Source: a virus
Taxonomy: Duplodnaviria; Caudoviricetes
DNA: 57,676 nt
Reading direction: 5' to 3' (one strand)
IMG/VR virus record: IMGVR_UViG_3300037760_000045
Location: 1-57,676 of that record
Of the stretch, positions 18,153 through 36,183 are shown in pieces. The notes under the pieces are model-generated. The model was not told the origin of the DNA. It worked only from the letters and a program-made list of their open reading frames with translations, and made no database searches. Numbering within the stretch: position 1 is the stretch's first letter; every line of letters starts with the position of its first letter. The translations under genes were made by a program, and so were the position numbers.

Positions 18153-18206
18153 TAACTTTCGCGGTAAGATCTATCGTGAGAGATGAACCAGAGGAGAAAG
18201 AGAAAA

Positions 18207-18590: not shown

Positions 18591-18593
18591 TCC

Positions 18594-18640
18594 GAAAGGG
18601 CTGACCCTTACTTACTACAAGTAGGGGTCAGCCCTTTCTT
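18594..18640 (+). terminator. Intrinsic terminator
   Basis: 20-bp stem GAAAGGGCTGACCCTTACTT / AAGTAGGGGTCAGCCCTTTC followed by TT. Confidence 0.8.
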
Positions 18641-18654
18641 CATCTCACGAGGAG

Positions 18655-19776: not shown

Positions 19777-19955
19777 AGGCTATGAAGTCTGCCGGTATGG
19801 GGGAGGTACGCAAACTTCGGCAGAGAGTTATCCGGCTACGTGCCATGGAGAGGGTAAGCGAGGAGGATTGTAAGTACATCACGAGGCGCTGCGATGAGAT
19901 TGAGGCTCGCATTGCGTCCATGTTTGAGGATGATCCGAGTGGAAGGGAATTCTAA
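19773..19955 (+). CDS. Hypothetical protein (60 aa)
   Basis: ATGA overlap with the upstream gene and abuts the downstream gene. Confidence 0.6.
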   Translation: MKAMKSAGMGEVRKLRQRVIRLRAMERVSEEDCKYITRRCDEIEARIASMFEDDPSGREF

Positions 19956-20732
19956 GTGCCTATTACAGAGCTAGCAGAAGGATCTGAATATGTGCACATG
20001 GCCGTAGTTGCTTCCAGCGGTTTCGGCAAGACTGTCTTCTGCGGTACTGCCCCGAAGGTCCTTATCCTGAGTACCGATCCTGAAGGTACTTTGTCTGCGA
20101 AGAAAATGGGGAGCAAGGCCAAAGAATGGAAGATCCGTAAGTGGGAGGATCACGAGGACAGCATCACCGAGGCATACAAGTACCTACGGGATGAGGGCTG
20201 TGAAGTCTTTGACTGGGTATGCATCGACAACATCACAGAGGCCCAGCAGCTCGCCAAGGAACGCTGTATGGAGCTAGGTAAAAGCAACAACAGCAAGCTT
20301 GACGAATTCATCCCGACCCCAAACGACTATCAGCGATCGCAGAACATGCTGATTCAGATGGTCAAGAAGTTTCACGATCTCCCCATCAATGTAATCTGGA
20401 CTGCGCACCGTACTGAGAATGAGGATGGAGAGGGGGAGCCATATTATGGTGCAGCTATCCATGGCCAGAAAGGTGCAATAGCGCAACAGGTTCTTGGCTA
20501 CATGAACATTGTGGCCATGGGAGAGGTAATTGAAGGCGAGGATGGCAAGGAGGTTAGAAGGTTCTACTTCACACATCGTGGCCCTTATCGTGGTAAGGAT
20601 CGGTTTATAGTCCTCCTCCCGTACCGGGATGGCTTAGATGTGAGAAGGATGATGCGGATAATCGATTCCGCAGAGGACAAGCCCGTAACCAGGACACAAC
20701 GTCCACGAGCAAAGAGGAAAGCGAATGCCTAG
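19956..20732 (+). CDS. AAA_24 / Sak4-like (RecA-like) ATPase, probable recombinase
   Basis: Walker A SSGFGKT, Walker B VCIDNITE, IWTAH, KDR. Confidence 0.8.
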   Translation: MPITELAEGSEYVHMAVVASSGFGKTVFCGTAPKVLILSTDPEGTLSAKKMGSKAKEWKIRKWEDHEDSITEAYKYLRDEGCEVFDWVCIDNITEAQQLAKERCMELGKSNNSKLDEFIPTPNDYQRSQNMLIQMVKKFHDLPINVIWTAHRTENEDGEGEPYYGAAIHGQKGAIAQQVLGYMNIVAMGEVIEGEDGKEVRRFYFTHRGPYRGKDRFIVLLPYRDGLDVRRMMRIIDSAEDKPVTRTQRPRAKRKANA

Positions 20733-21636
20733 TCTGAAGCGCAATGTCAAGAACGCTCCTGATAGCACCGGCTTTGAGAGCTATGACGGCCAGAATCCGC
20801 CCATGCAAAACAAGATGTATCGCGGGAAGATTGAGGTGGCTCGTGTTCGCGAGGCTGCCACTGGCACGATCGGCATCAACCTTCTCGTTAAGTTTGAGGC
20901 GAAAAAGGGCGACAAGGAGAACGCCAAGTATGACGGCTACCCGGCATGGGTTGACCTGTGGTTAGCGGACAAGGAGCCCAACCAGGCTCGCGAGAAGAAT
21001 TTGTACCGCGCTCTTGGGGTGCCGGACTCAAAGCTGGAGGACGTCAATGTTGTCCACAATGACATCGATGACGGTGGAGAGATCAAGAAGGTTTCCGGAC
21101 GCAACCCCATCGGCCGCGTCGTCATGATTGATATGAAGGTTGACCGGTATGAGGGCGAGAACCGTCTCAAAGGTGACGCCATCTACCCTGTCAAGGATCA
21201 ATCCTCTAAGTCTGTCGCTGAGGAACCAGAAGAGGAGCCGGACGACGAGGACGACCTGATCGAGCCAGATGAAGATGGTGACGTCGACTACGAGGAGCGC
21301 GAAGAGGAGCTGAAGGGTATGGCTCTTGGTGCCCTGCGCAAGCTCGCTAGTGGTGACTACGACATCGAGACCAAGGGCGTAAAGAAGGATGTTCTCGTCA
21401 CGGAGATCCTGACGCAGGAGTACCCGGACAACGGTGAAGAGGAGCCTGAGGATGAGGAGGATGACGAGAAGGTCAGCGCCGAAGATCTTCGCGGCATGAC
21501 CCTCTCAAAGGTGAAAGCGTTCGCGAAGGAGAACGCGGACTACACCGACGCCGATCTGAAGGGTGAAAAGAAGGCCGACATCATCGATCTGCTGATCGAA
21601 GACGAGATCATCGAGTCGGATGAGCCGCCCTTCTAA
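20725..21636 (+). CDS. SSB-like protein with acidic linkers, two Rho-N/HeH-like repeats and a ...DEPPF tail
   Basis: Beta-rich N-domain after a Sak4-like gene; repeats ELKGMALGALRKLA...KKDVLVTEIL and DLRGMTLSKVKAFA...KKADIIDLL; acidic Pro-Phe C-terminus. Confidence 0.65.
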   Translation: MPSLKRNVKNAPDSTGFESYDGQNPPMQNKMYRGKIEVARVREAATGTIGINLLVKFEAKKGDKENAKYDGYPAWVDLWLADKEPNQAREKNLYRALGVPDSKLEDVNVVHNDIDDGGEIKKVSGRNPIGRVVMIDMKVDRYEGENRLKGDAIYPVKDQSSKSVAEEPEEEPDDEDDLIEPDEDGDVDYEEREEELKGMALGALRKLASGDYDIETKGVKKDVLVTEILTQEYPDNGEEEPEDEEDDEKVSAEDLRGMTLSKVKAFAKENADYTDADLKGEKKADIIDLLIEDEIIESDEPPF

Positions 21637-21643
21637 ATCTGTG

Positions 21644-21802
21644 CCTCTCCAGCCCGAGGTTTGCCCGAGACGGCCTAACGGGGCCGTCCGGGACTCGGGT
21701 ACCAGGATGAAATCTAAGGGCTTAGAGACGCGCCTAGGGCTTCAGCCGCTAGGATAGGCCGGACCGGACGCCTTTCAGGCTAGTAGGGGAAATGAGGAGG
21801 GC
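21644..21802 (+). ncRNA. Candidate structured RNA / multi-hairpin element
   Basis: Hairpins 21652-21700, 21713-21726, 21733-21753 and 21770-21780 in an ORF-free gap. Confidence 0.45.
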
Positions 21803-21805
21803 TTT

Positions 21806-21942
21806 TAGATGTTCATAGATGTTTGGATAGGTGTTAGCAAGATCCCAGATAGATGTTAATAGATGTTTCACCCTTAGCACAAACATCTATAACACCTTTA
21901 AAAGATCTTGTTAACATCTATCCAAACACCTATAAACATCTA
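21806..21942. repeat. Palindromic octamer array 1 (5x TAGRTGTT then 5x AACAYCTA), candidate replication origin
   Basis: Forward copies at 21806, 21816, 21828, 21850, 21860; reverse copies at 21882, 21891 (degenerate), 21913, 21925, 21935; AT-rich; upstream of the primase-helicase gene. Confidence 0.85.
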
Positions 21943-22016
21943 TCTCTCTTATTTTCTGACTAGAGTGTTATAGGGGTAGTACGGGCGGTAATTAGAATTA
22001 CTAGCCGGAGGTGCAT

Positions 22017-24905
22017 ATGGCACAGGAGAAAAAGTACAAAGCGGAAACGGTGCGCAATGCATTCCGGCGATACTTTGTTGGTGAAGAGAATGACACAGGC
22101 GAGCAGCGCGCATACTGCCCGCTCTGCGAAGATCCAGATAGCTCTCACTCTCCTTCGGCATCGTTCAATGCTGACTCAGGACTATGGCATTGCATGAAGA
22201 CCGAGCACGGAGGTTCAATCTACAATCTCGTGCAGACCATGAAGAGCGAGCACGGTTTCAATCTACGTTCCGCAGCTATGGCCGGACGGCACCAAGACCC
22301 GAAGTTTTCTTCGCAGATAAATCGCAATCTGAAGAAGTCCGCGAAGCGGCAGGGCACCACCTCGCTCCCATCGCGGGAGCAGATTACAAAATGGCATGAG
22401 CGGTTACTGGCGAACGATCGGGTGCTGAGTAAACTCAGAGATGCACGAGGGCTGCAGGACAAAACCCTCAAACATTTTGAGATCGGCTGGGATGGACAGC
22501 GGTATACATTCCCCATCTACGATGGCGATGGAGATCTTGTAAACGTCCGCCGCTACAAGATGAACGCCAAGAAATCCAGCGAAAAGATGCTCAATGTCAC
22601 AGGTCATGGGACTGCGCGGATCTACGGGATGGATGATTTGGAGGAGTACGGCGACATAGTTCTCACCGAAGGTGAGCCTGATCGCGTACTTGTCTGGCAG
22701 GAGTTGCAGGGCGAGAATGTTGGTGTGGTAACCCACACAGCAGGAGCTGGATTCTTCAATCCGCAGTGGGGCGCGCTCTTCAAAGGCAAGCGAGTATGGA
22801 TATGCTATGACGCTGATGACACGGGGAAGCGGGGCATAGCCAAAGTCTCCAAGATTCTCAAGCCATTTGCAGTGGATATCTTCGCCATAGACATCCCACT
22901 CAAAGAGACAGGTGCAGACGCCACAGATTTCCTTCATGGAGCTGGCCATACCGGCCAGGATTTCCGCGACCTCATGCGGTTCGCAGAGGAACGGGCGAAC
23001 GGTAAACTGGCTGGTGAGATTCCTACTTCTGGGCAGAAAGTTTCGCTTTTAGAATCCATGTCGCAAGATAACCAGAATGAGGTTCTTGAGCTAGTCGTCT
23101 CGATCTCAGGCAAGCAGAGCGAGCCATATACTGCCCCCAAGATTATTGAGGCCAACTGCGATGTTAGCAAGGGGCCAGCGTGTACATACTGCCCGCTCTC
23201 GGCACAGAATGGTTCGATGCGTATTGAGCTGCGCCAGGACGATAATCAGCTGTTCCGGTTCGTGGACGCGCCAGAGGCGCGACGTCGTAGCCTCATGCGA
23301 GAGATCACAGGAGCCAGGTGTAACGACCGTATTGACTATGATGTGGCGGAGAGTTACCACATTGAAGAACTTCTGGTACAGCCGTCTGTCGATGAGCGAC
23401 GTGAGGATGAGACGGAGAGGCCAACGCACCGTACCCTGTTCTCGGTATCGACACATAGGTCTGCAGTCAACGAGAAACATAAGCTGATAGGGCGAAATAC
23501 AATTGACCCTAAGTCTGGCCGATTGCGGTTTATTGCGTGGGGGAATAACACAGTTGAGCTGGACATTGATAAGTTTAAGCTCACCCCTGAGATTCGTTCG
23601 CAGCTTAAGAAATTTCAGCCATCTCATGATCAAATGCCGCTTGATAAATGCTTAGAGATAGCGGGAGATCTTGTCACGAATGTGACTCATATATTCGAGC
23701 GAGATCTACTCCATGTCTGCTACGACCTCGTATGGCATAGCGTCCAGAGCTTCCGCATTGGAGACTCTACGGAGGACAAGGGCTGGTTAGAATGCCTGGT
23801 GGTGGGGGATACCCGGACAGGTAAATCTGAGATTGCGAAACGACTCATACGCCACTACAACTCTGGGCAGCTCCTCTCTTGCGAGGGTATGAGCTTCGCG
23901 GGGATTGTAGGAGGAGTCCAGCAGATCGATGGGCGATGGCATCTTACATGGGGCGCGGTACCAATGAACGATCGTCGGCTGGTAATCTTGGATGAGGTAT
24001 CTGGATTGCGAGACAACATCATAGATCAGATGAGCTCAATTCGCTCTTCTGGTATCGCCCAGATTACAAAGATCTCCTCTGAGCAGACGTCGGCTCGCAC
24101 CCGGCTCATCTGGGTGTCTAACCCTGCTGATGGGTCAATGATTGCGGACTCGCCGAACGTCGGCATGGGAGCATTACGCAGCGTTGTACCGAACGCAGAG
24201 GACATAGCCAGGTTTGACTTTGTGACTGCGACTGCGCAAGGGGAGGTACCGGTTACGGTTATGAACAGCGACTACTCACCGCTGTATGACCCCTCATATA
24301 CCTCTGAGGAGTGCGAGATGTTGATTAAGTGGGCATGGTCGCTGACTAAGAATGACGTGGTCATATCGGAGAAAGCCGACAAGACTTCACGGGAACTCGC
24401 AGAACAATTAGGTAAGCGATACATACCAGACCCACCGCTGATTCAGGCTGAGAACGTTCGCGTGAAGCTCCTGCGCATCGCAGCCGCTATTGCCGCTAGA
24501 ACCTTCTCTGCCAACAAGGCTGGAAAGCTAGTAGTCAACGCAGAGCATGTACACGATGCGATGAGATTCTTGGACATGATTTATGCCCAGGAATCGATGG
24601 GCTATGGTCGGATGTCCCAGCGCGCTATTCGCGCCACGACGATGGCCCGCGAACGGAAAGAAGTATGTAAGAGCTACCTACTGGAACACAAGGATGATGT
24701 GCTTCAGACGTTGCGCATGGTCGGTGGATCGACGTTTCGTAATAGGGACTTTGAAGAGTTTGGCGCGATGTCTCGTGATGAGAGTCACATTACAGTGAGC
24801 GCTCTCCTGAAGATGAAAATGGTACACCGTAAGACACGAGGAGATATTGGTATGAATCCGACTCTCTTAGAGATACTGAGAGAGCTGGAAGATGAGGAGG
24901 AGTAA
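22017..24905 (+). CDS. DNA primase-helicase: Zn-finger + TOPRIM + MCM-like AAA+ domain
   Basis: CPLC...WHC; TEGEPD, CYDADDTG, DATD; VGDTRTGKSE, ILDEV, SARTRLI, ARFD; internal C...CTYC motif. Confidence 0.9.
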   Translation: MAQEKKYKAETVRNAFRRYFVGEENDTGEQRAYCPLCEDPDSSHSPSASFNADSGLWHCMKTEHGGSIYNLVQTMKSEHGFNLRSAAMAGRHQDPKFSSQINRNLKKSAKRQGTTSLPSREQITKWHERLLANDRVLSKLRDARGLQDKTLKHFEIGWDGQRYTFPIYDGDGDLVNVRRYKMNAKKSSEKMLNVTGHGTARIYGMDDLEEYGDIVLTEGEPDRVLVWQELQGENVGVVTHTAGAGFFNPQWGALFKGKRVWICYDADDTGKRGIAKVSKILKPFAVDIFAIDIPLKETGADATDFLHGAGHTGQDFRDLMRFAEERANGKLAGEIPTSGQKVSLLESMSQDNQNEVLELVVSISGKQSEPYTAPKIIEANCDVSKGPACTYCPLSAQNGSMRIELRQDDNQLFRFVDAPEARRRSLMREITGARCNDRIDYDVAESYHIEELLVQPSVDERREDETERPTHRTLFSVSTHRSAVNEKHKLIGRNTIDPKSGRLRFIAWGNNTVELDIDKFKLTPEIRSQLKKFQPSHDQMPLDKCLEIAGDLVTNVTHIFERDLLHVCYDLVWHSVQSFRIGDSTEDKGWLECLVVGDTRTGKSEIAKRLIRHYNSGQLLSCEGMSFAGIVGGVQQIDGRWHLTWGAVPMNDRRLVILDEVSGLRDNIIDQMSSIRSSGIAQITKISSEQTSARTRLIWVSNPADGSMIADSPNVGMGALRSVVPNAEDIARFDFVTATAQGEVPVTVMNSDYSPLYDPSYTSEECEMLIKWAWSLTKNDVVISEKADKTSRELAEQLGKRYIPDPPLIQAENVRVKLLRIAAAIAARTFSANKAGKLVVNAEHVHDAMRFLDMIYAQESMGYGRMSQRAIRATTMARERKEVCKSYLLEHKDDVLQTLRMVGGSTFRNRDFEEFGAMSRDESHITVSALLKMKMVHRKTRGDIGMNPTLLEILRELEDEEE

Positions 24906-25072: not shown

Positions 25073-25338
25073 TGCCGGATACCCGGATTGTCTATGGAAT
25101 GTGCACGTGGTGGGACTCGATTGACAAAGTCGCCAAAGCCCCATCAGGTCTACCGATCTGCCCATATTGCAGGTCTCCACTTATGGAGGTCCCAAGCGAG
25201 GAGGAGTGGTGGAAACAGGTAAATTCTCACGCAATCAAATACAGGGGATATCGAGAATTCATAGAGTGGTTGCGAGGTAAATGTTTCCCTAACTTTCTGG
25301 TGGCCGAGGACGCTTACCGGAATAGACCAGAGACATGA
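25072..25338 (+). CDS. Hypothetical Cys-containing protein
   Basis: CTWW, CPYC; coupled, with RBS. Confidence 0.7.
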   Translation: MPDTRIVYGMCTWWDSIDKVAKAPSGLPICPYCRSPLMEVPSEEEWWKQVNSHAIKYRGYREFIEWLRGKCFPNFLVAEDAYRNRPET

Positions 25339-25889
25339 TCACATATCTCACAATGAAAGGCTATGGCTCAACGGCTAAGACTCTGCATGATGATCTCCTA
25401 GAGTTGCAGCGAGAGGATGTCATGGCGCTTGTGGACGCGCTGACTCTCGATGAGTCATCTGATATTGTTCCGGAAAATGACCCGGTTCGATTCATGTGGA
25501 GCGGCTATGAGTATGCGTTATGCATCTATGGGATGTTCCTCTGTCATGAGTGGACTATCCGTGGTAACCGGTGCAAGATCTTCTGGGAACTTAAACACGC
25601 GTTGGATGAGCTAGGCGATAGCTATATGGCGCCACCGTGGTCAAAGGATCTCGATGTCATACGTTCCCATAGAAGTAATCTCATGCGAGAGCTGCCGAAG
25701 CTCTATTCAAAGACATTCAAGGGCACCCCGCCCAATATGCCATACTTATGGCCAGCTAACGCTTGGGATGTCAAGACATGGGAGCCTATGGGCTATGACC
25801 TACGGCTCAGCAAAGAAGACAAGGCGCTACTAGAGGCAGGCGAACGTCACTTGCCTAAGCGGATACGAGAGAGGATTGTGAACTTATAA
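25335..25889 (+). CDS. MSMEG_6728-like / pyrimidine-dimer DNA glycosylase (endonuclease V)-like protein
   Basis: PVRFMWSGYEYALCIYG...EWTIRG, PPW, SHRSNL, PYLWP match the family pattern; N-terminus is divergent. Confidence 0.7.
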   Translation: MITYLTMKGYGSTAKTLHDDLLELQREDVMALVDALTLDESSDIVPENDPVRFMWSGYEYALCIYGMFLCHEWTIRGNRCKIFWELKHALDELGDSYMAPPWSKDLDVIRSHRSNLMRELPKLYSKTFKGTPPNMPYLWPANAWDVKTWEPMGYDLRLSKEDKALLEAGERHLPKRIRERIVNL

Positions 25890-26086: not shown

Positions 26087-26262
26087 TGAGCGCATGGGAT
26101 GACTACAAGGGGGCCGTAGCCAAGAGCGCGAAACATATGCGGCTGGCAGATGGCGGGGTAGATAGGGGCGAGTTTGATTGGCATATCAAACAGGCGGAGG
26201 TTTGGGCAACTCTCGCTCTGGCTCACGCGACGGCAGCGACCGCAAGGCAGGAGGATAAGTGA
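26083..26262 (+). CDS. Hypothetical protein (59 aa)
   Basis: ATGA and GTGA overlaps; MMSAWDDYKGAV...; absent from the ORF track. Confidence 0.6.
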   Translation: MMSAWDDYKGAVAKSAKHMRLADGGVDRGEFDWHIKQAEVWATLALAHATAATARQEDK

Positions 26263-26648
26263 AGGATCGGCATGGCCCAAATAACCCTAATTGGAAGGGC
26301 GGGCGCTCACAAACGTATGTTAGCAATTTGTACTCTGTAGAGGGCAAACTATGTGAGCGTTGTGGGGCTGATGAAGATATTGTCAGGCATCACAAGGATG
26401 AAGATCGAGCCAACAATGATCAGTCCAATATTGAGATCTTATGTCGCGGATGCCATAGTAGTCATCACCATAAGGGGAAGTCGAAGAATTGGACTTCTGA
26501 AGGATTAGCTAGATTATCAGCAGCCAGCAGCGGCAACAAGTATTGGGTTGGTAAAAGACATTCAGATAAATCTAAACTTAAGATGGGAAGATCGCAAAAG
26601 AAGGTCGCATCCAATAGACGACGTGATGCATTAGGCAGGTGGGCGTAG
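26259..26648 (+). CDS. HNH endonuclease with NUMOD3-like tail
   Basis: CERC, HHKDEDRANN...N...LCRGCH; GNKYWVGKRHSDKSKLKM; visibly more AT-rich. Confidence 0.85.
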   Translation: MKDRHGPNNPNWKGGRSQTYVSNLYSVEGKLCERCGADEDIVRHHKDEDRANNDQSNIEILCRGCHSSHHHKGKSKNWTSEGLARLSAASSGNKYWVGKRHSDKSKLKMGRSQKKVASNRRRDALGRWA

Positions 26649-27428
26649 ATGCGTGCTCTGATACTTGGCTGCGGACCGGCAGGACTGATGAGCGCCCATG
26701 CTGCTGTTCGCAGTGGAGCCGATATTGAGATCCTTTCGCTCAAGCGGAAGAGCCCATTGCGAGGCGCGCAATATCTCCATCACAAAATCCCAGGGACGCC
26801 CGCCTATGAGATCTGGATCTCGTATCAGATGACAGGTACGCCCGCTGTCTATAGAGACAAGGTATACGGCCCAGAGAGCGACGTACGCGTGTCCCCTGAG
26901 TCCCTGTTGGGGGAGACTAGGGCGTGGGATATTAGGGCCGTATACGACCGTCTATGGGCGCTCTATGGGTACAACGTCAAACGATGGGAGGCCGATCCTG
27001 AAGCGCTGCAGAATGCTATGGGTAGGTTCATGCCTGATGTTGTGATCTCAACTATCCCTGCCTACCTCCTTTGTAAAGGAGGGCACAACTTTGACTCCGT
27101 GTCAGTATTGGTGAGTGAGGACGCGCCGGATATCCCGATCGAGTATGACAATACGGTTGTGTGCTCTGGGCGACCTGAGCATACATGGTACCGACAAAGC
27201 CGGATCTGTGGATGGGAGAATACAGAGTACGCACCGAGGAATCTATTCGGGAAGCTGCAGACTAATGATCTGAAGCTAGTTAGAGTTACCAAGCCTCTGT
27301 CTACTGATTGCAATTGCTTCCCTGAGGTAGTCCGCATGGGCCGGTATGGACGCTGGGAGAAAGGCGTGCTGTCAGATACGGCATATAGAGACACGGAGCT
27401 ATTAGTTAGAGGAGGAGAACATGACTAG
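26649..27428 (+). CDS. FAD/NAD(P)-binding oxidoreductase-like protein
   Basis: Rossmann motif LILGCGPAGL; GAQYLH; VISTIP; C-terminal GRYGRW. Confidence 0.8.
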   Translation: MRALILGCGPAGLMSAHAAVRSGADIEILSLKRKSPLRGAQYLHHKIPGTPAYEIWISYQMTGTPAVYRDKVYGPESDVRVSPESLLGETRAWDIRAVYDRLWALYGYNVKRWEADPEALQNAMGRFMPDVVISTIPAYLLCKGGHNFDSVSVLVSEDAPDIPIEYDNTVVCSGRPEHTWYRQSRICGWENTEYAPRNLFGKLQTNDLKLVRVTKPLSTDCNCFPEVVRMGRYGRWEKGVLSDTAYRDTELLVRGGEHD

Positions 27429-28050
27429 AATCCACCCGTTAGCACCAGTAGTGGCCATAGACATAGATGGTACTTTAGGTGCATATCACGATCACTTTAC
27501 TTGGTTTGCTGAATTGTATCTTCAAAGTTCACTATCTCCTGTCTATCGTAACTCTGACGAGGGCGAGTTTAGTAATGCTCTCGATCTTGATAAGCGTGTG
27601 TACCGGGACATCAAGCTCGCATACCGGCAAGGCGGTATGAAGCGTTCCATGCCGGTATTCAAGAATGCCAGGAAATCCATAGAGGCAATACGTGCAGACA
27701 ATATTGCAGTATGGATCACGACAACACGGCCATGGAACCGTCTCGACAACATCGATCCAGATACGCAGTTCTGGATTAACCGGAACATTGGCAAGGTTGA
27801 TGGAGTCGTCTACGGTGAGGACAAGTACCTAGATCTGATCGATATCGTCGGGCGCGAACGGATCTTAGGAGTGGTCGATGACATCCCTGAGAACGTTGAT
27901 AGGGCATCTTCATTAGGGCTGCGGAGGGTGCTCATGGATGGTCCGCACAATCTCTGGTACAAAGGGCGGGCACCCCGTATCCAGTCCGCAGTCGAGATCT
28001 ACAATGTGGTATCTAAATACTGGATCGACGGAAAGGAATACCAGCCATGA
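27421..28050 (+). CDS. HAD-superfamily phosphatase (deoxyribonucleotidase-like)
   Basis: DIDGTL, ITTTRP, K, VVDD motifs I-IV. Confidence 0.85.
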   Translation: MTRIHPLAPVVAIDIDGTLGAYHDHFTWFAELYLQSSLSPVYRNSDEGEFSNALDLDKRVYRDIKLAYRQGGMKRSMPVFKNARKSIEAIRADNIAVWITTTRPWNRLDNIDPDTQFWINRNIGKVDGVVYGEDKYLDLIDIVGRERILGVVDDIPENVDRASSLGLRRVLMDGPHNLWYKGRAPRIQSAVEIYNVVSKYWIDGKEYQP

Positions 28051-28382
28051 GAATAGAACAACACCCTGATGGCAGAGGTATCACATTGCTTTTAGATGGC
28101 GATGAGACCTATGAACTCAAGTCCATTGTGCTACGCCATCTACCTAATTGGCTGAAACTTTTTGAGCAGAAGAATTCAAAATACGCAGGGCTGGAAGGGA
28201 ATGAGCTAGGCGCCAAGGGCAAGTTTGTCGATGTGTTCCGTAAAGTGCGGCTGCTAAAGAGCCGTCTCTGGGACGGGCACCCTGTCTCAGGGGAGGATAA
28301 TGAAGAGGTGATCAGCGATCTAATTGGGCATCTATTCCTCATGCTACATGATACGCGAGAAGAAGAGGCCAACAAGACATGA
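28047..28382 (+). CDS. Nucleotide-modification-associated domain 1 (Nmad1/DUF1599-like) helical protein
   Basis: KNSKYAG...LGAKGKFVDVFRKVRLLK...EEVISDLIGHLFL. Confidence 0.6.
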   Translation: MRIEQHPDGRGITLLLDGDETYELKSIVLRHLPNWLKLFEQKNSKYAGLEGNELGAKGKFVDVFRKVRLLKSRLWDGHPVSGEDNEEVISDLIGHLFLMLHDTREEEANKT

Positions 28383-31300
28383 AATATGTCTCACTGCATA
28401 GCCACAGCACCTACTCATATGCAGACGGCTACGCATTGCCAGAGGATCATGTTAAGCGAGTCGCAGATCTCGACATGAGTGCGCTCGCTCTTACTGAACA
28501 TGGCAATGTGAGTAGCCATGTCAAGCTAGAGCAGGCTGCGAAGGAGCATGGCATTAAATCAATCTTTGGCTTAGAGGCTTATACCGCTCCGGCTAATATG
28601 CGGGAGACACAGAACCAGCGTAAGTGGCATCTTACCATTCTCGCCGCAGACGATCTCGGCTACCGCAATCTGATGCAGCTCGTGACTAAGAGCTGGGATG
28701 CTAACTTTTACCGCTGGCCTACTGTGCTTGGAGCTGATCTGCGAGAGCACCATGAGGGGCTGATCGTTCTCTCAGGATGTGCCGACTCTAAGCTGGCCTG
28801 CGATCTCTTAGGAGGGAAGGGACGCGAGAAGGGCGATGAGCGAGACGCCGTTAATACCATGCTGGGATTTAAGCGGCTGCTTGGAGATCGGTTCTATCTA
28901 GAGGTACAGCAGTTTCCAGAGCTAGATCGGACGCGGCTCATCAATGAGAAATATGAGGAGTGGTCATCGACTTACGGGATACCGTTAGTTGCCTCTTCAG
29001 ACGTCCACTATCCGCATCCTGAGAACAACGAGATGCAGAAGATCTTGCATGCCGCTGGACGTAACACAGGGACGGTTGCGGCTGCGGAAGCAGAGTGGGA
29101 GTATGACATACGACTGACATACCCTACTTCGGATAACCAGATCAAGAAACGGCTACGCGATACCGGCTTAAGCAAGTTCGCCGCAGAGGCCGCAATAGCT
29201 CACTCTGCGGAGATTGCGGAGCGCTGTAATGTTGAGCTGCCGAAGATGGACCGGGTGAAGTACCCGATCCAGGACGACATCGCATATACGCCAGGAATGA
29301 CAACTGAAAAGCTGTTCCGGATGTGGATGAATGATGGGTGGAAGTATCGTGGATTCGACAAGCTGCCATTATCGGTCCAGAAGCAATACAAGGAGCGGGC
29401 TGAGTATGAGTATGGCCTGATGGCTGATAAGGATTTCCTGGACTATTTCATGATGATGAGCGACGCTGTTAGAGCCTGCAAGGACAATGGTATTCCTGTT
29501 GGCCCGGCTCGTGGTTCCGCAGCGGCTAGTCTCGTCTGCTACCTGCTACGGATTACAGAGGTAGATCCGATGAAGTACCCGCTGATGCTCTTTGAAAGAT
29601 TTATTGCACCTGACCGTCATGACCTCCCAGATGTCGATCTCGACTTTGATGATGATCTACGGGACGGCGTACGGCTACACATGGCTAAGAAGTATGGTGA
29701 AGATCGGGTAGGAAACATCGGCACCTTCACCCGGTATCGCGGTAAGAACAGCATTGACGATGTGGCCCGTGTGTATCGGATACCAAAATGGGAAGTGGAC
29801 GCTGTAAAGGGATTCATCCCAGAGCGGACGTCTGCGGATGAAAGGTTCGATGCATCGATCTCCGACATGATCGAAATGTATCCGAAGATCAAAGAGGCAT
29901 TTGAGCGCTGGCCGGATCTCTACAGATCGATCGAGCTAGAAGGGAACCTCAAGAACCACGGCGTACATGCCGCAGGCGTTGTCGTCGGCGCAGAGCCGCT
30001 ATGGAACTACGTAGCCACCTACTCCCGTAAGATGCAGGATGGAAGGAAACTTCAGGTCCTCTCGGTAGACAAGTACGACGGAGAGCACCTAGGACTCCTT
30101 AAACTTGACGCTCTGGGCCTAAAGACGATGGGCATGATACGGATAGCCCTAGAGATAATTGGCATGTCTCTCGATGAGCTATACGCCCTCCCCACAGATG
30201 ACCCTGATGTACTAGATGCGTTCAACCGCGCAGACGTTACTGGGATCTTCCAGTTTGAAGGGCGTACGATGCGGCTCGTAACGCAGGAGCTGCGGCCCAA
30301 TACCTTCATGGACCTCTCGGCCATCAACGCGCTGGCGCGACCCGGACCGTACAACTCAGGCACAACGGGAGACTACATCTTAGTACGTCACGGACGCCAG
30401 GAGCGAGAAGACTTACATTCAATTGTCGGGCGCATCTGCGAAGAGACAGAGGGGCAGATCATTTACCAGGAACAGATTATCAGGATCTGCTCAGACGTCG
30501 GGAACTTCCCGTGGACACACGCGACCAAAATCCGCAAGATCATCTCGCAGAAGTACGGCGAGGCTGCGTTTGAGAAGATGTGGGGAGACTTCCGCGATGG
30601 AGCGGCGACTCATGATATTGATGAGCAGCTGGCTAGAAAGATCTGGAACCGGATGATCACTGCTGGGCTTTATGCATTCAATGTCGCTCACTCGATCAGC
30701 TACTCGCTAATTGGCTACTGGTCTATGTGGTTGAAGGTTCACCACCCCCTAGCCTTTTACGCAGCTCAGCTCCAGAAGACAGACGACGATGACAAGAAGC
30801 TAGACCTCATGCGGGACATGATGGATAAGCGCTTTGACCGCAGCTATGAGGTGCTGCCTCCTAACCCTAAGACTTCAGGGCGTACGTGGCAGCCACTTGA
30901 TAACGGTGTGCTGGCGGGATTCAAAGAGATACCAGGTATCGGCGACAAGACTTCTCAGGCCATCGTTGACTTCAAGGAGAAGGTAGAAGTTGAGCGATGG
31001 GATGGTCTTATTGGGGTGCCAGGAATTGGTAAGAAGACAATTGAGAAGATGCGGGAGTTCTCGCTGAAGGATGACCCATTCGACATCCATAAGATTGAGA
31101 GGGAAACGAAAGCGATCCGCGAGTGGCTGCGAAGAGAAGGGCTGCCTATGCCTAATACGCTTGCGACTGACATTCCATTTGAGGCGCAGAGGTCGTCACA
31201 CATCGTGTTAGGGCTGCTGAAAGATAAGCAGCCGCAGGATATGTACGAGAACGTCCGCGCTCGCACAGGCGAGGAGCTTGACCCTAAGACGGTGAAAGAT

Positions 31301-31513
31301 CCTGAACTGTCGGCGTATATGACTATGTTCTTAGAGGATACACATGGGCGGATTACCCTGAAGGTGAATCGCTGGACATACCCGAAGTATCGAGACGACA
31401 TCGACAACGCAATAATCAACCAGGATTATGTGCTCGCAAAGGCAGTTAAGAAGCCATATCACGGTAGATCAATACACGCCACAAGGCTCTACATCATAAA
31501 CCCTGATGATTAG
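28379..31513 (+). CDS. dnaE: DNA polymerase III alpha subunit (DnaE-like) with PHP domain
   Basis: LHSHSTYS, LTEHGN, GLEAY, SDVHY; GPARGSAAASLV; PDVDLD; KLDALGL; GIFQFE; YQEQ; FNVAHS. Confidence 0.97.
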   Translation: MKYVSLHSHSTYSYADGYALPEDHVKRVADLDMSALALTEHGNVSSHVKLEQAAKEHGIKSIFGLEAYTAPANMRETQNQRKWHLTILAADDLGYRNLMQLVTKSWDANFYRWPTVLGADLREHHEGLIVLSGCADSKLACDLLGGKGREKGDERDAVNTMLGFKRLLGDRFYLEVQQFPELDRTRLINEKYEEWSSTYGIPLVASSDVHYPHPENNEMQKILHAAGRNTGTVAAAEAEWEYDIRLTYPTSDNQIKKRLRDTGLSKFAAEAAIAHSAEIAERCNVELPKMDRVKYPIQDDIAYTPGMTTEKLFRMWMNDGWKYRGFDKLPLSVQKQYKERAEYEYGLMADKDFLDYFMMMSDAVRACKDNGIPVGPARGSAAASLVCYLLRITEVDPMKYPLMLFERFIAPDRHDLPDVDLDFDDDLRDGVRLHMAKKYGEDRVGNIGTFTRYRGKNSIDDVARVYRIPKWEVDAVKGFIPERTSADERFDASISDMIEMYPKIKEAFERWPDLYRSIELEGNLKNHGVHAAGVVVGAEPLWNYVATYSRKMQDGRKLQVLSVDKYDGEHLGLLKLDALGLKTMGMIRIALEIIGMSLDELYALPTDDPDVLDAFNRADVTGIFQFEGRTMRLVTQELRPNTFMDLSAINALARPGPYNSGTTGDYILVRHGRQEREDLHSIVGRICEETEGQIIYQEQIIRICSDVGNFPWTHATKIRKIISQKYGEAAFEKMWGDFRDGAATHDIDEQLARKIWNRMITAGLYAFNVAHSISYSLIGYWSMWLKVHHPLAFYAAQLQKTDDDDKKLDLMRDMMDKRFDRSYEVLPPNPKTSGRTWQPLDNGVLAGFKEIPGIGDKTSQAIVDFKEKVEVERWDGLIGVPGIGKKTIEKMREFSLKDDPFDIHKIERETKAIREWLRREGLPMPNTLATDIPFEAQRSSHIVLGLLKDKQPQDMYENVRARTGEELDPKTVKDPELSAYMTMFLEDTHGRITLKVNRWTYPKYRDDIDNAIINQDYVLAKAVKKPYHGRSIHATRLYIINPDD

Positions 31514-31522
31514 GAGGAGACG

Positions 31523-31840
31523 ATGGGAACGAAAATCAATGGTCTAGATGAGATTACACTGGGCCAGATTAGCTCTGAGTCCGTTCGCGCTATAGCGAAG
31601 CATGGCTGGAATAAGACGCCATTCAACCCTGATCTAGACCGGTACAGGAAGCTGGCCATTTTGACGGAGGAGATAGGCGAGGTTGCAAAAGAGCTATGCG
31701 AGCTGGAGCTGAATCCAGGCAGCTGGACTCCTGACAATCTGGTCTCTGAGCTTATCCAAGTTGCATCAGTCGCTGCGAGCTGGTTGGAGTGTGAGGATGT
31801 CCAGCGTTTTAGACCACAAAATGTTCCAGATGGCACGTGA
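31523..31840 (+). CDS. MazG-like NTP pyrophosphohydrolase
   Basis: LTEEIGEVAKE...ELIQVASVAASWLE. Confidence 0.8.
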   Translation: MGTKINGLDEITLGQISSESVRAIAKHGWNKTPFNPDLDRYRKLAILTEEIGEVAKELCELELNPGSWTPDNLVSELIQVASVAASWLECEDVQRFRPQNVPDGT

Positions 31841-32186
31841 GACCTCGTGGATGAGTACATGTATCCGTAGGCAGGTTGGAGCGGTACTCCGCAGTCCTAG
31901 TGGGCTGTATTCTACGGGATGGAACGAGGAGCGTAATAGTAGGCTGTGTGCGACGGATTGCCCACGAGCGAAGAGTGAGGAACCTCCAGGAGCTCCATTC
32001 GCCGGTAATGGGAAATGTATCGCTACTCACGCAGAGATGAAGGCGATCGCGCACATGCAACAGCTCTACGGATACGAGACTTTCGCGGGATTTGTAATAT
32101 GGGTTACGCACAAACCATGCAGCGACTGCGCAAACAGGCTAGACCAAATGCAGATATCAGTGAAATGGGAAAAGGAGTATCCATGA
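31797..32186 (+). CDS. dCMP deaminase family protein
   Basis: STCIRRQVGAVL, TGWN, HAE, PCSDC. Confidence 0.9.
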   Translation: MSSVLDHKMFQMARETSWMSTCIRRQVGAVLRSPSGLYSTGWNEERNSRLCATDCPRAKSEEPPGAPFAGNGKCIATHAEMKAIAHMQQLYGYETFAGFVIWVTHKPCSDCANRLDQMQISVKWEKEYP

Positions 32187-32575
32187 GGATCTATATCAGC
32201 GGCCCTATTACGGACGTACCAAATCACAGAGACAATTTCTGGTTGGCAGGGGAATGGCTCAAGGAGGAGGGGCACAATGTCGTCAATCCTGTGGATCACG
32301 AGCCAGGCTGTCTGGGAGAGTGTACGAGAGATCGGGAAGGATACGACGGGAAGCCTCACACGTGGGAGTGCTACCTGAAATACGACCTGATCATGATGCT
32401 CCAGTGTGAAGCGGTCTACGTTCTATCCGGTTGGGAGAAGAGCAGGGGTGCGCAGCTAGAGGTTCAGGTGGCGAGTGCCTGCGGGCTTGAGATCATCTAT
32501 GAGGTCCCAGAGAAGGATCCGCCGCGAATCCCAGGGTATGAGCCAGTGAGATCAATCTTTGAGGAGGGCAAGTGA
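32183..32575 (+). CDS. DUF4406 / nucleoside 2-deoxyribosyltransferase-like protein
   Basis: RIYISGPIT, VVNP, DLIMMLQCEAVYVLSGWEKSRGAQLE. Confidence 0.85.
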   Translation: MRIYISGPITDVPNHRDNFWLAGEWLKEEGHNVVNPVDHEPGCLGECTRDREGYDGKPHTWECYLKYDLIMMLQCEAVYVLSGWEKSRGAQLEVQVASACGLEIIYEVPEKDPPRIPGYEPVRSIFEEGK

Positions 32576-33024
32576 GTAAATGTTTACATGGGTGTAATTG
32601 CGGTCGACATTCAGGACTTAAACTTTCTGATAAGCCAAACTGGAAAGGAGATCAGGCCGGATATGCCGCGCGACATGACAGAGTAAAGACTGTTCGCGGT
32701 AAAGCTTCTAATCATCCTTGTGTCACTTGTGGGAAGCCAGCAAGAGACTGGGCTGAAATTCACGGGACTGGTGGTTTTAAATTCGATGATTATCAGCCAA
32801 TGTGTAGAGTATGCCATCGTGAATACGACAGCATAATGTGGGATGGCAATCAAGGTCTGAACAAGCTGACAAGAGATGACGTTATTGATATACGTAAATC
32901 TTTACAGCTAGGGCTAATGAATGGCAATGAACTTGCTCGTAAATACAACGTGACAAATGCAACAATTAGCTCTATAAGACTTGGGAAAAGCTGGTCTTGG
33001 CTTAAGGAGAACGACAATGAATAA
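32572..33024 (+). CDS. HNH-type endonuclease with C-terminal HTH
   Basis: CVTC...YQPMCRVCHREYD; KLTRDDVIDIR...ELARKYNVTNATISSIRLGKSW; more AT-rich. Confidence 0.75.
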   Translation: MSKCLHGCNCGRHSGLKLSDKPNWKGDQAGYAARHDRVKTVRGKASNHPCVTCGKPARDWAEIHGTGGFKFDDYQPMCRVCHREYDSIMWDGNQGLNKLTRDDVIDIRKSLQLGLMNGNELARKYNVTNATISSIRLGKSWSWLKENDNE

Positions 33025-34108
33025 TGAAGTGCAGAAGTGGGCCGATGAGGCGATGTATGCATCTGAACCATTAGATGCTTCTACTGGACCCAGGGTATAT
33101 CTTCTCGAAATGAGTCATGATCCATTAGGACAAATTGCTGCTGCGTGCCTCATGTACAAAGGCAAGGTGGTGCGCTCGCTCGCAGATGTTACCGACGATG
33201 AGCGACGGTACTTCTTCAAGGAGGTCCAGAACACTAAGCTCAAAGCGCCATTCGAGTTTGTGAAATTTCACTTCCTCATTGAGGGAGTTACGAGGAGCCT
33301 CACGCATCAGATGGTGCGGCAGCGGACGGCTGTTTATGCACAGGAGAGTCTGCGTTTCGCAGTCAAGGAGAACATGGCCGAGAGTGTTGCCCTCCCCCCG
33401 TCTCTCGCAGGGGCGCGATCTATGCGAGAGATCTACGATGACGCAGAGTCGAATGGCTGGAACTGGGATCTCTTACCAGAGGTCGATCGGAAGAGGTATC
33501 AGTGGGGCGTGGTCATGCAGCAGACAGAGCAGGCATATCAAAAGCTGGTAGATACGGGTATGCCTGCAGAGGACGCTCGTGGACTCCTCCCGCACAACAT
33601 CACCACCCGGCTCCACTATTCGACGGACCTGAGAGCGCTTCAGGATCACGCGGGTAACCGGCTATGCACTCAGGCGCAAATGGAATGGCGAATCTTGTGG
33701 ACGCGAATCATTGAAGCGATCCGTAACTATGATCCACGGGCTGCTAATGCGGAACGGCTGGGCGGGGAAGACACGTCAAATTGGACTCCTGATATGCTGC
33801 CCGACCGCTGGCAGTTTGAGATGTTGTCTGATATCTTCCGTCCGGTCTGCTACCTAACGGGCAAGTGTGAGTTCAGGGCCAACTTTGATCGTTACTGCAA
33901 GATCCGTGAACGGGTGAACGCCAACGAACAGGTTGGGCGTTCTAGTTCGGAATGGGGTGAAGAGTACGACAGTGTTGAGGGCAATCCGATCGTTTCAGGG
34001 GTTGGGCCACAGTCTGTCGTTTATGGCGAAGGGATTCGACCTGTCTTCATAGGCGCTATTCAGCCTGCAGAATGGCTGCTAGATCCAGGGGCAGCGAGGA
34101 GACCATAA
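33017..34108 (+). CDS. thyX: ThyX-like flavin-dependent thymidylate synthase (variant motif)
   Basis: PFEFV, GVTRSLTHQMVRQR-x7-SLR, EDARGLLP, RLCTQAQMEW. Confidence 0.85.
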   Translation: MNNEVQKWADEAMYASEPLDASTGPRVYLLEMSHDPLGQIAAACLMYKGKVVRSLADVTDDERRYFFKEVQNTKLKAPFEFVKFHFLIEGVTRSLTHQMVRQRTAVYAQESLRFAVKENMAESVALPPSLAGARSMREIYDDAESNGWNWDLLPEVDRKRYQWGVVMQQTEQAYQKLVDTGMPAEDARGLLPHNITTRLHYSTDLRALQDHAGNRLCTQAQMEWRILWTRIIEAIRNYDPRAANAERLGGEDTSNWTPDMLPDRWQFEMLSDIFRPVCYLTGKCEFRANFDRYCKIRERVNANEQVGRSSSEWGEEYDSVEGNPIVSGVGPQSVVYGEGIRPVFIGAIQPAEWLLDPGAARRP

Positions 34109-35133: not shown

Positions 35134-36183
35134 ATGTTGAGAAAGATTTTTATCGCTCTGCTGGCGAGCTTCGGGCTCATGCTGGCAGGGGTATCGGCTG
35201 CGAGCAGCACTGAGGGTGGGGAATCTGTCGTTGTGACGTCTCAGATCGCGAACACCCCGGACAACGACTGCCCGGCTTGGGCACGGGATACGTTCACCCG
35301 GATCGCTACGATCACTGAGCTGCCTGAGGATTCCGACGCCGATTACAGCATCAGGTTCGATTCGATAGGTGAGTTTGTCGCTGCCTCCGGTATCACGGGA
35401 TCCCTGACCGAAGTGATCGAGTATTCGGTGACCGGTGAGCTTTCAGAAGACGCGGGCTCACTAGACGGCGAGATCGTAGATCTCAGCCATCTGGAGTGCA
35501 AGAGCGACGCTGAAGGTACCGAGAAGACTTCCCAGTTCGCTCTTCGATATTTTGAACAGGGTGCGACGGCTGGCCCGATCACATTCTGGGAATATGTCTA
35601 TGACACGAGCTGTGAGCGGTTCATAGAGAATAAGGATTCTGGTGCGGTGGGGGTTGATACCTTCACGGGCATCTGCGTTACGCCAGAGGAGCCGACCGTA
35701 ACGCAGGCTGTATGCGAGGAGTCAGCGACGCTTACTGTGCCCGAGGTTGAGGGCGTAGTTTACAGCCACGAGTCTAGCGACAACGTGATTCCGCTTCCGC
35801 AGTCGCTCACGGTGACCGCAGAGGCCGCTGAAGGCTACGTCCTGGCTGAAGGTGAATGGGCATGGGACTTTGAATTCAACGCCGCAGAGGGCTGCCCCGG
35901 TGAGCCGGGAGAACCGGGTACACCTACTCCTGGAGAACCGGGCGAGACAGGGCCACCTGGGCCACCTGGGCCACCAGGAGAGCCGGGCGATAAGGGTGAC
36001 AAGGGTGATCCAGGAGATGACTTTACGCCTGCACCCACGCCTAGCGACCCAGAGTTGCCTAACACAGGTAGTGGGAAGGAGCTGCCTGATACAGGCGCTT
36101 CCACCGCAGGGCTGCTACTAGGGGGAGGGCTGCTGGTTGCTGGCGGTCTAGGTCTGTTGGCCCGTAGGTTTCTGCTGAGTTAA
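35134..36183 (+). CDS. Secreted LPXTG cell-wall-anchored protein with collagen-like repeat
   Basis: Signal peptide; Gly-X-Y run (GEPGETGPPGPPGPPGEPGDKGDKGDPGDD); LPNTG and LPDTG; hydrophobic TM; RR tail. Confidence 0.88.
   Translation: MLRKIFIALLASFGLMLAGVSAASSTEGGESVVVTSQIANTPDNDCPAWARDTFTRIATITELPEDSDADYSIRFDSIGEFVAASGITGSLTEVIEYSVTGELSEDAGSLDGEIVDLSHLECKSDAEGTEKTSQFALRYFEQGATAGPITFWEYVYDTSCERFIENKDSGAVGVDTFTGICVTPEEPTVTQAVCEESATLTVPEVEGVVYSHESSDNVIPLPQSLTVTAEAAEGYVLAEGEWAWDFEFNAAEGCPGEPGEPGTPTPGEPGETGPPGPPGPPGEPGDKGDKGDPGDDFTPAPTPSDPELPNTGSGKELPDTGASTAGLLLGGGLLVAGGLGLLARRFLLS

Follow-up and report, generated by a model that had tools for sequence, protein, structure and literature searches.

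Among the closest described systems to the gene cluster analyzed here are the hypermodification pathways built on 5-hydroxymethyl-2'-deoxyuridine (5-hmdU) in phages SPO1, phiW-14, SP10, ViI, M6, and PaMx11 (PMC8989533, PMC11472151). These pathways combine a thymidylate-synthase-type enzyme acting at the mononucleotide stage with a polymerase of the phage's own and with enzymes that shape the nucleotide pool. The synthase is a hydroxymethylase of the ThyA family, and the pathways further employ a 5-hmdU DNA kinase and aGPT-Pplase transferases as well as, in one case, a flavin adenine dinucleotide (FAD) enzyme of the GR2 family, PaMx11 gp47 (NGTO). In known hypermodification clusters, the core genes stay constant and the tailoring genes around them vary (PMC8989533). 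The subject of this work is the 57,676-base virus record IMGVR_UViG_3300037760_000045 (hereafter the window, that is, the whole stretch of DNA that was analyzed), in which an operon encodes a long variant of the thymidylate synthase ThyX, a 259-amino-acid (aa) FAD-fold protein denoted OXR, a small Nmad1-like protein, a HAD-superfamily phosphatase, and a DnaE-type polymerase. The operon resembles the 5-hmdU pathways in its synthase-type enzyme, its polymerase, and its pool-shaping enzymes, whereas its synthase-like enzyme has the unrelated ThyX fold, and neither the ThyA-family hydroxymethylase nor the kinase or transferases of those pathways are found among the 91 open reading frames (ORFs) of the window that were scanned. 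The reading favored here, at a probability of roughly 0.42, is that the core of this gene family makes a non-canonical thymidine-type nucleotide and, in this phage, a simple one.

Two further systems provide the background for this reading. The virion DNA of Pbunaviruses F8 and 14-1 resists enzymes with TG in their recognition sites and contains extra nucleosides of 362 and 390 U that replace about one-quarter of the thymidines, in TG context (preprint, 2025, PMC12191111); the accessible text of that preprint ties no gene to the modification and does not contain the word "ThyX." In canonical ThyX, Ser88 and Tyr91 are conserved among the enzymes of the family (PMC8316439), strictly so according to PMC11940539. 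In the latter paper, His53 is described as stacking against the folate and forming a hydrogen bond with Tyr91, and a flavin oxidation 1000-fold slower than normal is cited for mutants of Tyr91. The Thermotoga maritima enzyme also accepts free formaldehyde as the methylene donor (PMC8316439), so that a folate-independent ThyX variant is chemically possible.

A long variant of ThyX retains the arginines of the canonical enzyme and lacks Tyr91 and His53

The ThyX-like protein of the window shares the fold and the Thy1 domain (PF02511) of the canonical enzymes, such as T. maritima TM0449 and Mycobacterium tuberculosis ThyX. In a Foldseek search with its predicted structure (pLDDT 88.0), the top matches were all T. 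maritima ThyX (TMt 0.68-0.73, E ~2e-08). Against the ThyX equivalog model TIGR02170, the protein scores 82.5 bits, under the curated NCBI cut-off of 87.9 bits. Compared with canonical ThyX, it is longer by about 120 residues at the C terminus, where the ThyX core is followed by a conserved extension.

To compare individual positions, residues were mapped through HMMER alignments to chains of solved structures, with the T. maritima numbering fixed by the chain of a His53Ala mutant, and a census was taken over 103 unique long ThyX sequences, the one from the window included. All 103 retain the equivalents of Arg78, Arg80, Arg90, Arg147, and Arg174, which bind deoxyuridine monophosphate (dUMP) in canonical ThyX, and of Ser88. 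Conversely, the position of Tyr91 is occupied by Phe in 85 sequences and by Ala in the other 18, and never by Tyr. At the position of His53, 96 sequences have Leu, 6 have Ile, and 1 has Arg, with no His; at that of His79, 78 of the 101 sequences tabulated have Gln, 16 have Ser, and 7 have another residue, again with no His. In the window protein, His53 is replaced by Leu, Asn85 by Ala, and Tyr91 by Phe, and the RHR motif containing His79 has become RQR. The annotated thymidylate synthase of mycobacteriophage L5 (gp48), by comparison, has the canonical His, RHR, and Tyr. Because the arginines are kept and the Tyr91/His53 pair is lost, the long ThyX clade is expected to bind dUMP as ThyX does, without the pair that gates the folate and assists the step.

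The clade is also marked by four cysteines (numbered here on the window ORF 33020-34108). Cys216 lies in the core, two residues past the Arg174 equivalent, and is retained in 100 of the 103 sequences; Cys277, Cys283, and Cys293 lie in the C-terminal extension and are retained in 101 each. The window protein has all four, and the long ThyX of phage Wollypog has none of them. The cysteines could hold a metal or take part in catalysis. A last difference from canonical ThyX is that this type always occurs with a dedicated flavoprotein.

The flavoprotein OXR belongs to a two-domain FAD oxidoreductase fold group

OXR matches no Pfam family, and a sequence search of solved structures yielded a best E value of 0.31. 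Its sequence starts with a Rossmann-type GxGxxG motif (GCGPAG at residues 7-12), and its AlphaFold model (pLDDT 95.2, pTM 0.91) has the two-domain fold of FAD oxidoreductases. A VIA-align search of 48,161 representative chains gave matches at Z 11-13.8 across ~230-248 aligned residues: UDP-galactopyranose mutases came first (Z 13.8, 12.9, and 12.6), trailed within about 1 Z unit by flavin monooxygenases, protoporphyrinogen oxidases, and amine oxidases (Z 11-13). Foldseek ranked D-amino-acid oxidase and VioD first (TMq 0.50-0.58, probability 1.00). OXR does not match the Pfam family of UDP-galactopyranose mutases (PF03275), and its fold match to them is not clear of those to other flavoenzymes. 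On the model, OXR is clearly placed in the fold group that comprises GR2 enzymes, amine oxidases, and UDP-galactopyranose mutase. In a route of the PaMx11 gp47 type, the FAD enzyme acts on thymidine that has been glycinylated in DNA; this route was rejected for OXR since its partner transferase and kinase are absent from the window.

The invariant residues of the OXR family include Tyr68, Tyr99, Arg182, Glu193, and a GRxGxW stretch, and a CxC pair (residues 221 and 223) is nearly invariant. Homologues were found in 756 representative protein clusters (E <= 1e-3), the closest clusters in the ESM Atlas being 95-100% viral, and are essentially confined to viruses.

A conserved core is widespread among actinophages

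To separate core from accessory genes, 80 loci on viral contigs were taken around homologues of OXR and 80 around homologues of the long ThyX. Genes were counted in the 41 OXR-centered loci with at least 10 kb downstream and in the 53 ThyX-centered loci with at least 9.5 kb upstream (given below in this order); the Nmad1-like gene was located with an iterated profile. DnaE is present throughout (41/41 and 53/53), and the Nmad1-like gene nearly so (39/41 and 52/53). OXR was found in 51 of the 53 ThyX-centered loci, its expected position in the two others lying outside the fetched DNA, and the long ThyX in 32 of the 41 loci centered on OXR. The HAD phosphatase is somewhat less regular (38/41 and 41/53). 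The conserved core thus comprises OXR, the Nmad1-like protein, the long ThyX, DnaE, and usually the phosphatase, which is of the NT5C-like type.

The remaining genes come and go around this core. An SDR gene is present in 21/41 and 26/53 loci, a methyltransferase in 6/41 and 11/53, DUF4406 in 6/41 and 11/53, the dCMP deaminase in 5/41 (anywhere in the locus) and 3/53, and the 105-aa MazG-like protein in 2/41 and 4/53; in phage Sparcetus, a GT2 gene lies beside the core. Variable neighbors such as the SDR, methyltransferase, and GT2 genes around a fixed core form the same pattern as that of the known hypermodification clusters (PMC8989533). Gene order within the core varies as well. For example, OXR adjoins ThyX in Krampus-like Microbacterium phages, and it starts 719-1502 bases upstream of ThyX in five of the ThyX-centered loci; elsewhere DnaE lies between the two genes, at a separation of 5-9 kb. 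The counts do not represent independent events, given that the related loci have one replication backbone in common: of the loci whose upstream sequence reaches at least 9 kb, 44 in number, all have a RecA-like gene and an exonuclease, and 42 have an SNF2 helicase.

A search of 50,697 phage records located OXR in 126, all of them actinophages, and the long ThyX in 113 (E <= 1e-20). The genus counts for the two genes are identical (Gordonia, 46; Microbacterium, 36; Arthrobacter, 2; Nocardia, 1), and the two occur together almost without exception. Five of five OXR-bearing isolate genomes that were checked contain exactly one Thy1 match and no ThyA (PF00303). Conversely, the control phages L5, TM4, and Giles match neither the OXR profile nor the long-ThyX profile at E <= 0.01. 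The module is widespread among phages, and the window carries a new member. This agrees with a sequence-only reading of the window, made earlier by a model without database searches, which had guessed that similar gene sets may recur in other actinophages.

The oxidoreductase-phosphatase-(methyltransferase, SDR)-DnaE-ThyX-like set of cultured actinophages is known from Mycobacterium phages PBI1, PLot, Gumball, and Chill, the Krampus-like phages of Microbacterium, Gordonia phages of the genus Lambovirus, Arthrobacter phage Wollypog, and Streptomyces phage Yara. The OXR of the window is 31-51% identical and its ThyX 35-46% identical to their counterparts, and the window has these phages' gene order as well as their helicase, exonuclease, and RecA-like genes upstream. 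In contrast to this set, the window has no SDR or methyltransferase and carries in addition the dCMP deaminase, DUF4406, and 105-aa MazG-like genes and two HNH genes.

A Pbunavirus encodes counterparts of the variant ThyX, OXR, and DnaE

When the window ThyX was used as a tblastn query, the best matches beyond actinophages were Pbunaviruses. Of the 615 records matched at E <= 1e-3, 291 are from Pseudomonas phages, with E values of ~1e-17 among the matches listed. The ThyX of Pbunavirus KTN6 (gp59, 305 aa) has Ile, Thr, and Ala at the positions of His53, His79, and Tyr91, keeps the five arginines and three of the four cysteines, and has Thr in place of Ser88. KTN6 gp65 is a homologue of OXR, with similarity that is not confined to the Rossmann motif at the start (135 columns in hhalign, probability 92.5%, E 4.8e-7), which is consistent with a fold match to a protein of Pseudomonas phage PA5. 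The KTN6 polymerase is DnaE-like (2e-99), and the phage also encodes a PNKP-type HAD phosphatase (a domain of gp57) and a MazG-like protein. Thus, a trio of variant ThyX, OXR homologue, and DnaE is present in both the window and KTN6.

Of the known modification functions, no TET/JBP or other dioxygenase, ParB, glycosyltransferase, or kinase Pfam match was found in the 44 KTN6 proteins scanned. Because KTN6 carries both the variant ThyX and the OXR homologue and these 44 proteins contain none of the above domains, the two proteins are, as far as sequence can indicate, the most visible candidates for the thymidine modification of Pbunaviruses. Some phage T-dioxygenases have NTG specificity (PMC13229309); such an enzyme was considered as the source of the TG mark and rejected, as no such domain is present in the window or in the 44 KTN6 proteins.

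The Pbunaviruses differ from the phage of the window in being myoviruses of a proteobacterium, in their shorter ThyX, and in the PNKP type of their HAD phosphatase. A fusion of the HAD and Nmad1-like proteins, which would have pointed to coupling of the two, was also looked for: no ORF was matched by both profiles, and the C-terminal part of KTN6 gp57 was not recruited by the Nmad1-like profile. Beyond the genes discussed above, the window and KTN6 both encode DUF2786/DUF7168 and DUF6011 proteins and an SNF2 helicase (14253-14990, 15244-15705, and 16227-18152 in the window; 3484-4263 and 5492-6424 of locus L166 and 18300-19859 of locus L165 in KTN6). A replication module thus seems to be common to actinophage siphoviruses and a proteobacterial myovirus.

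Candidate function of the core and its alternatives

The core does not resemble a plain thymidylate synthase in its make-up, while the accessory genes (deaminase, MazG-like, and DUF4406) fit the supply of dUMP and thymidine monophosphate (dTMP). We infer that the core constitutes a flavin-dependent pathway that adds a one-carbon-derived substituent to C5 of dUMP by a route unlike that of canonical ThyX, with a non-canonical thymidine-type nucleotide, or a 5-substituted deoxyuridine that is tailored later, as a more likely product than plain dTMP. In such a pathway, the dCMP deaminase would supply dUMP, to which the MazG-like protein could contribute by hydrolyzing dCTP or dUTP to monophosphates. 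The variant ThyX would bind dUMP with its five retained arginines and transfer a methylene through its flavin without the Tyr91/His53 pair, while OXR would serve it as a dedicated partner, either in redox or in the supply of substrate. Competing or intermediate nucleotides would be trimmed by the HAD phosphatase and the Nmad1-like protein, and DnaE would incorporate the product. Given that this phage has no tailoring enzyme, any modification here should be simple. The sequence-only reading had also suggested that the phage may make a modified pyrimidine, arguing that plain dTMP supply would not call for four enzymes of potential nucleotide degradation. That argument is weak, as three of the four are sporadic in the OXR-centered loci (5/41, 6/41, and 2/41) and fit ordinary supply equally. 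The idea itself gains some support of a different kind, from the core, the ThyX clade, and the Pbunavirus parallel, and loses some from the lack of TG sparing and of a kinase or transferase, as discussed below. A bolder version is rather unlikely: that the long ThyX, OXR, and the Nmad1-like protein form an unrecognized pathway, dependent on flavin, to deoxyuridine modified at C5 (one candidate product being 5-hydroxymethyl-dU or a similar handle), shared by at least 100 cultured actinophages, hundreds of uncultured soil and sediment phages, and Pbunaviruses; that this route is the genetic basis of the hypermodification in F8 and 14-1; and that the phage of the window represents the bare core with a minimal product.

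Several observations weigh against a modified nucleotide. Restriction-site counts, observed versus expected (O/E) over the 64 six-base palindromes, are an indirect, low-power statistic, and in the window they do not indicate protection: palindromes containing TG are not spared (summed O/E of 0.89 versus 0.80 for all non-TG palindromes and 0.88 for non-TG palindromes matched in GC content; p 0.39), and ACATGT is depleted (4 versus 10.9 expected). Several palindromes are strongly depleted or nearly absent, both with T (CTCGAG, 0 versus 7.5 expected; TTCGAA, 0 versus 4.7; GAGCTC, 8 versus 26.2) and without (GCCGGC, 0 versus 14.6; CCGCGG, 0 versus 10.1; CCCGGG, 1 versus 7.8), a clear footprint of host restriction systems. 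The depletion of the T-containing sites implies that not every T is protected and that T in TC and TT contexts is not protective. KTN6, in contrast to the window, spares TG palindromes (summed O/E of 0.96 versus 0.73, p 0.026), none of which is among its 12 most depleted. Across 82 related loci pooled, the values are 0.82 for TG and 0.70 for non-TG palindromes; this offset was not counted because control phages without the module show similar ones (L5, 0.56/0.52; TM4, 0.73/0.65; Giles, 0.79/0.70). The gene content of the window points in the same direction. No nucleotide or DNA kinase, glycosyltransferase or other transferase, dioxygenase, or ThyA-type hydroxymethylase was found among its 91 ORFs scanned with Pfam and/or PHROGs. 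The lack of a kinase or transferase argues against a bulky or pre-replicative replacement; a modified monophosphate made before replication would have to rely on host kinases. As to the Pbunavirus parallel, KTN6 is not among the strains in which the modification was measured (F8 and 14-1), and neither the Nmad1-like protein nor the HAD type of the window was found in KTN6 by profile. Furthermore, the loci share a common replication module, so that the linkage of the core could reflect ancestry as much as function, and the literature search returned no chemistry on the DNA of this phage or its actinophage relatives and no work on the gene set.

Ordinary dTMP supply also fits, with all dUMP-binding residues and the ThyX fold kept and a dCMP deaminase nearby, and it has to be regarded as a strong competitor, although at less than even odds. 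Here the long ThyX would be a true dUMP-to-dTMP synthase in which other residues or OXR offset the loss of Tyr91 and His53, OXR could be a dedicated reductase or a supplier of one-carbon units (for example, formaldehyde), and the deaminase, the MazG-like protein, DUF4406, and the HAD phosphatase would shape the deoxynucleoside triphosphate pool for a fast DnaE replicase, the DNA containing the four canonical bases only. The strong Thy1 match (2.7e-32) and the ThyX fold argue for this, as do the five arginines and Ser88 kept in 103/103 sequences, the deaminase in the same operon, the position of the long ThyX as the sole thymidylate-synthase-like gene in 5/5 isolate genomes, the window's lack of a kinase, transferase, and dioxygenase, and its avoidance of T-containing palindromes with no sparing of TG sites. 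In addition, the use of free formaldehyde by T. maritima ThyX (PMC8316439) makes a folate-independent variant chemically possible, and a preprint on Asgard viruses interprets a dUTPase-ThyX-Nmad1 block as plain dTMP synthesis. It is harder to reconcile with the absence, in 103/103 sequences, of Tyr91, which PMC11940539 describes as strictly conserved and credits with ~1000-fold in rate; with the score below the equivalog cut-off (82.5 versus 87.9 bits); with the presence of a dedicated flavoprotein, an Nmad1-like protein, and a deoxynucleotidase-type phosphatase, for which a plain synthase has no known need; and with the modified thymidine that Pbunaviruses with the same variant do carry (PMC12191111).

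It is improbable that the helper genes are unrelated to ThyX, that is, that OXR, the HAD phosphatase, and the Nmad1-like protein act in replication or repair (for example, as a DNA 3'-phosphatase, in pool sanitation, or in the repair of a damaged cofactor or nucleotide) and travel with ThyX in one inherited replication module. The syntenic backbone (RecA-like, 44/44; exonuclease, 44/44; SNF2, 42/44) allows the linkage to be a matter of ancestry, a polynucleotide-kinase family is among the PHROG matches of the HAD protein, a phosphatase domain of the PNKP type is present in KTN6 gp57, and the fold matches of OXR are generic (Z 11-13.8 over many flavoenzyme families). Nevertheless, OXR stays with the long ThyX in spite of rearranged gene order, whether at 719-1502 bases, adjoining, or 5-9 kb away across DnaE; it was not found (E <= 0.01) in the three control phages, of which L5 has a canonical ThyX; and its homologues are essentially confined to viruses.

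If the favored reading of a modified thymidine is true, this would be the first pathway of DNA-base modification to use the ThyX fold in place of the ThyA fold, candidate genes would be named for the thymidine modification of Pbunaviruses, and modified DNA would be predicted in more than 100 easily grown actinophages of teaching collections. Pbunaviruses are widely used therapy phages. If the product is plain dTMP, the module, carried by more than 100 cultured phages, would represent a clade of ThyX enzymes that dispense with a tyrosine and a histidine regarded as essential and that depend on a flavoprotein as obligate partner, which would bear on the mechanism of ThyX and on ThyX as a drug target.

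Organization of the operon

The ten genes of the region are encoded on the same strand and are separated by gaps of -20 to +9 bases, with no internal stops and with several ATGA-type overlaps; they form a single operon within the phage replication module (Table 1).

Table 1. Genes of the nucleotide operon and landmark genes of the window
Feature	Coordinates	Strand	Profile evidence
HNH endonuclease	26259-26648	+	16 PHROG families at E <= 1e-3, best phrog_1271 (4e-08); 14/16 annotated HNH endonuclease
OXR, 259-aa FAD-fold protein	26649-27428	+	phrog_8720 (4e-79)
HAD-superfamily phosphatase, NT5C-like (5'(3')-deoxyribonucleotidase type)	27421-28050	+	PF06941 (E 6.7e-05, 23.3 bits; cut-off, 24.8)
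Nmad1/DUF1599-like small helical protein, 111 aa	28047-28382	+	phrog_10271 (9.7e-14)
DnaE-type replicative polymerase (Pol III alpha-like), 1044 aa	28379-31513	+	PF07733 (4.6e-65), PF17657 (2.6e-36), PHP (1.3e-32), HHH_3 (3.2e-06); phrog_405 (4.7e-303)
MazG-like all-alpha NTP pyrophosphohydrolase-type protein, 105 aa	31523-31840	+	phrog_2831 (5.7e-11)
dCMP (deoxycytidylate) deaminase	~31821-32186 (start codon uncertain; 31797 also possible)	+	PF00383 (1.8e-13); phrog_174 (1.4e-21); HAE and PCxxC zinc motifs visible
DUF4406, nucleoside 2-deoxyribosyltransferase-like	32183-32575	+	PF14359 (6.4e-21); phrog_355 (1e-29)
HNH endonuclease with C-terminal helix-turn-helix (HTH) part	32572-33024	+	phrog_4160 (2.2e-13), phrog_59 (HNH, 1.5e-06), phrog_517 (HTH, 1.2e-04)
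Long variant ThyX, 363 aa	33017-34108	+	PF02511 (2.7e-32, 112.5 bits; cut-off, 24.8)
Tape-measure protein	358-3687		
M23/LysM lysin	11209-11901		
Replication block: SNF2 helicase, PD-(D/E)XK exonuclease, RecA-like/Sak4-like ATPase, primase-helicase	within 16227-24905		
Terminase	44755-46281		
Capsid gene	52791-53990		

All of the genes named by the sequence-only reading are present, on the plus strand, close to where it had placed them, and tightly packed. It had overlooked the two HNH endonuclease genes. The DnaE, dCMP deaminase, DUF4406, and ThyX-like assignments are backed by firm matches to profile hidden Markov models (PF07733, PF00383, PF14359, and PF02511), and the lack of a nucleotide kinase and glycosyltransferase that it had remarked on is borne out by the ORF scan. 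Its other assignments are upheld in part. The FAD-binding enzyme has the GxGxxG start and, in the model, an FAD-oxidoreductase fold, and belongs to no Pfam family. The HAD phosphatase of the window falls just under the PF06941 cut-off, while its homologue in phage Chill scores 31.9 bits, above it; the window protein has matches to phrog_420 and phrog_415 and a DIDGT motif (DxDxT), and its gene overlaps OXR by 8 bases. Neither this protein nor the DUF4406 protein gave a match worth naming in a sequence search of solved structures.

For the Nmad1-like and MazG-like proteins, which the sequence-only reading had named as such, similarity to the respective families is remote. The 111-aa protein, whose gene has 4-base ATGA-type overlaps on both sides, does not itself match PF07659 even at E 10. 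Of its 39 homologues, two match PF07659 under the cut-off (E 1.1e-4, with 22.9 bits against a cut-off of 25, and E 0.018), the PF07659 set is common to 29 of the 30 nearest ESM Atlas clusters, and structural comparison gave TM values of 0.62-0.71 over six listed rows, PF07659 being common in three of those clusters. These matches suggest a remote relative of the Nmad1/DUF1599 family. Matches of the protein to designed "Cake" propellers in the solved-structure search were dismissed as repeat artifacts. The 105-aa protein has no Pfam match and no tblastn match in the 50,697 phage records; besides the window's own, 13 relatives were found, none with a Pfam domain, although 2 of the 13 match PF03819 at E <= 1. 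A profile of the 13-sequence family matches the MazG-type proteins YpjD (2gta, E 3.5e-4) and 5ie9 (E 6.4e-4). The motifs TEEIGE and ELIQV are invariant in the 13 sequences (5ie9 has ELGDV at the second) and presumably correspond to the paired acidic metal-binding motifs of the MazG type. The protein thus appears to be a remote MazG-like protein, encoded by an accessory gene.

The first HNH gene, with sub-threshold Pfam HNH and NUMOD3 matches and a stop codon that abuts the ATG of OXR, is probably a mobile insert heading the run. The second is inserted between DUF4406 and ThyX, with overlaps of 4 and 8 bases with these neighbors. The DnaE gene of phages Wollypog and Sparcetus is annotated in two pieces with small ORFs between them (locus L001, 11341-15217, and locus L004, 12518-16015, respectively), one of which in Wollypog is an HNH endonuclease; DnaE of the window is a single gene, and it is the operon that is flanked by HNH genes.

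The phage and its genomic setting

The window spans an entire virus record, in which genes run almost uniformly in one direction. Its likeness to cultured phages at the DNA level is limited to a 701-base stretch of DnaE (9%) with 69.7% identity to Arthrobacter phage Wollypog. The phage is an uncultured siphovirus, and its closest cultured relatives infect Actinobacteria. The window sequence or close relatives are contained in six DNA sequencing runs of sediment and soil metagenomes, which come from six different studies, and no RNA run is listed; these runs are kept as assembled contigs, in which base modifications cannot show.

Just past the nucleotide operon, the ORF at 35134-36183 encodes a protein with repeats of the collagen triple-helix type and, at the C terminus, an LPXTG motif for anchoring to the cell wall (Pfam, 1.7e-06 and 3.1e-05). 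Proteins of this kind are unusual in phages, and its presence is a hint of a Gram-positive host. An 802-aa protein encoded downstream of the tape-measure gene (5866-8274) combines a PhoD-like phosphatase domain (7.7e-16) with DUF5047 and is probably a tail protein. Upstream of the operon, a 184-aa protein (25335-25889) matches the NCBIfam family MSMEG_6728 (7.6e-22, under that family's 100-bit cut-off), and 16 of the 44 related loci whose upstream sequence reaches at least 9 kb have a homologue of it upstream of OXR, no more than about 1 kb away.

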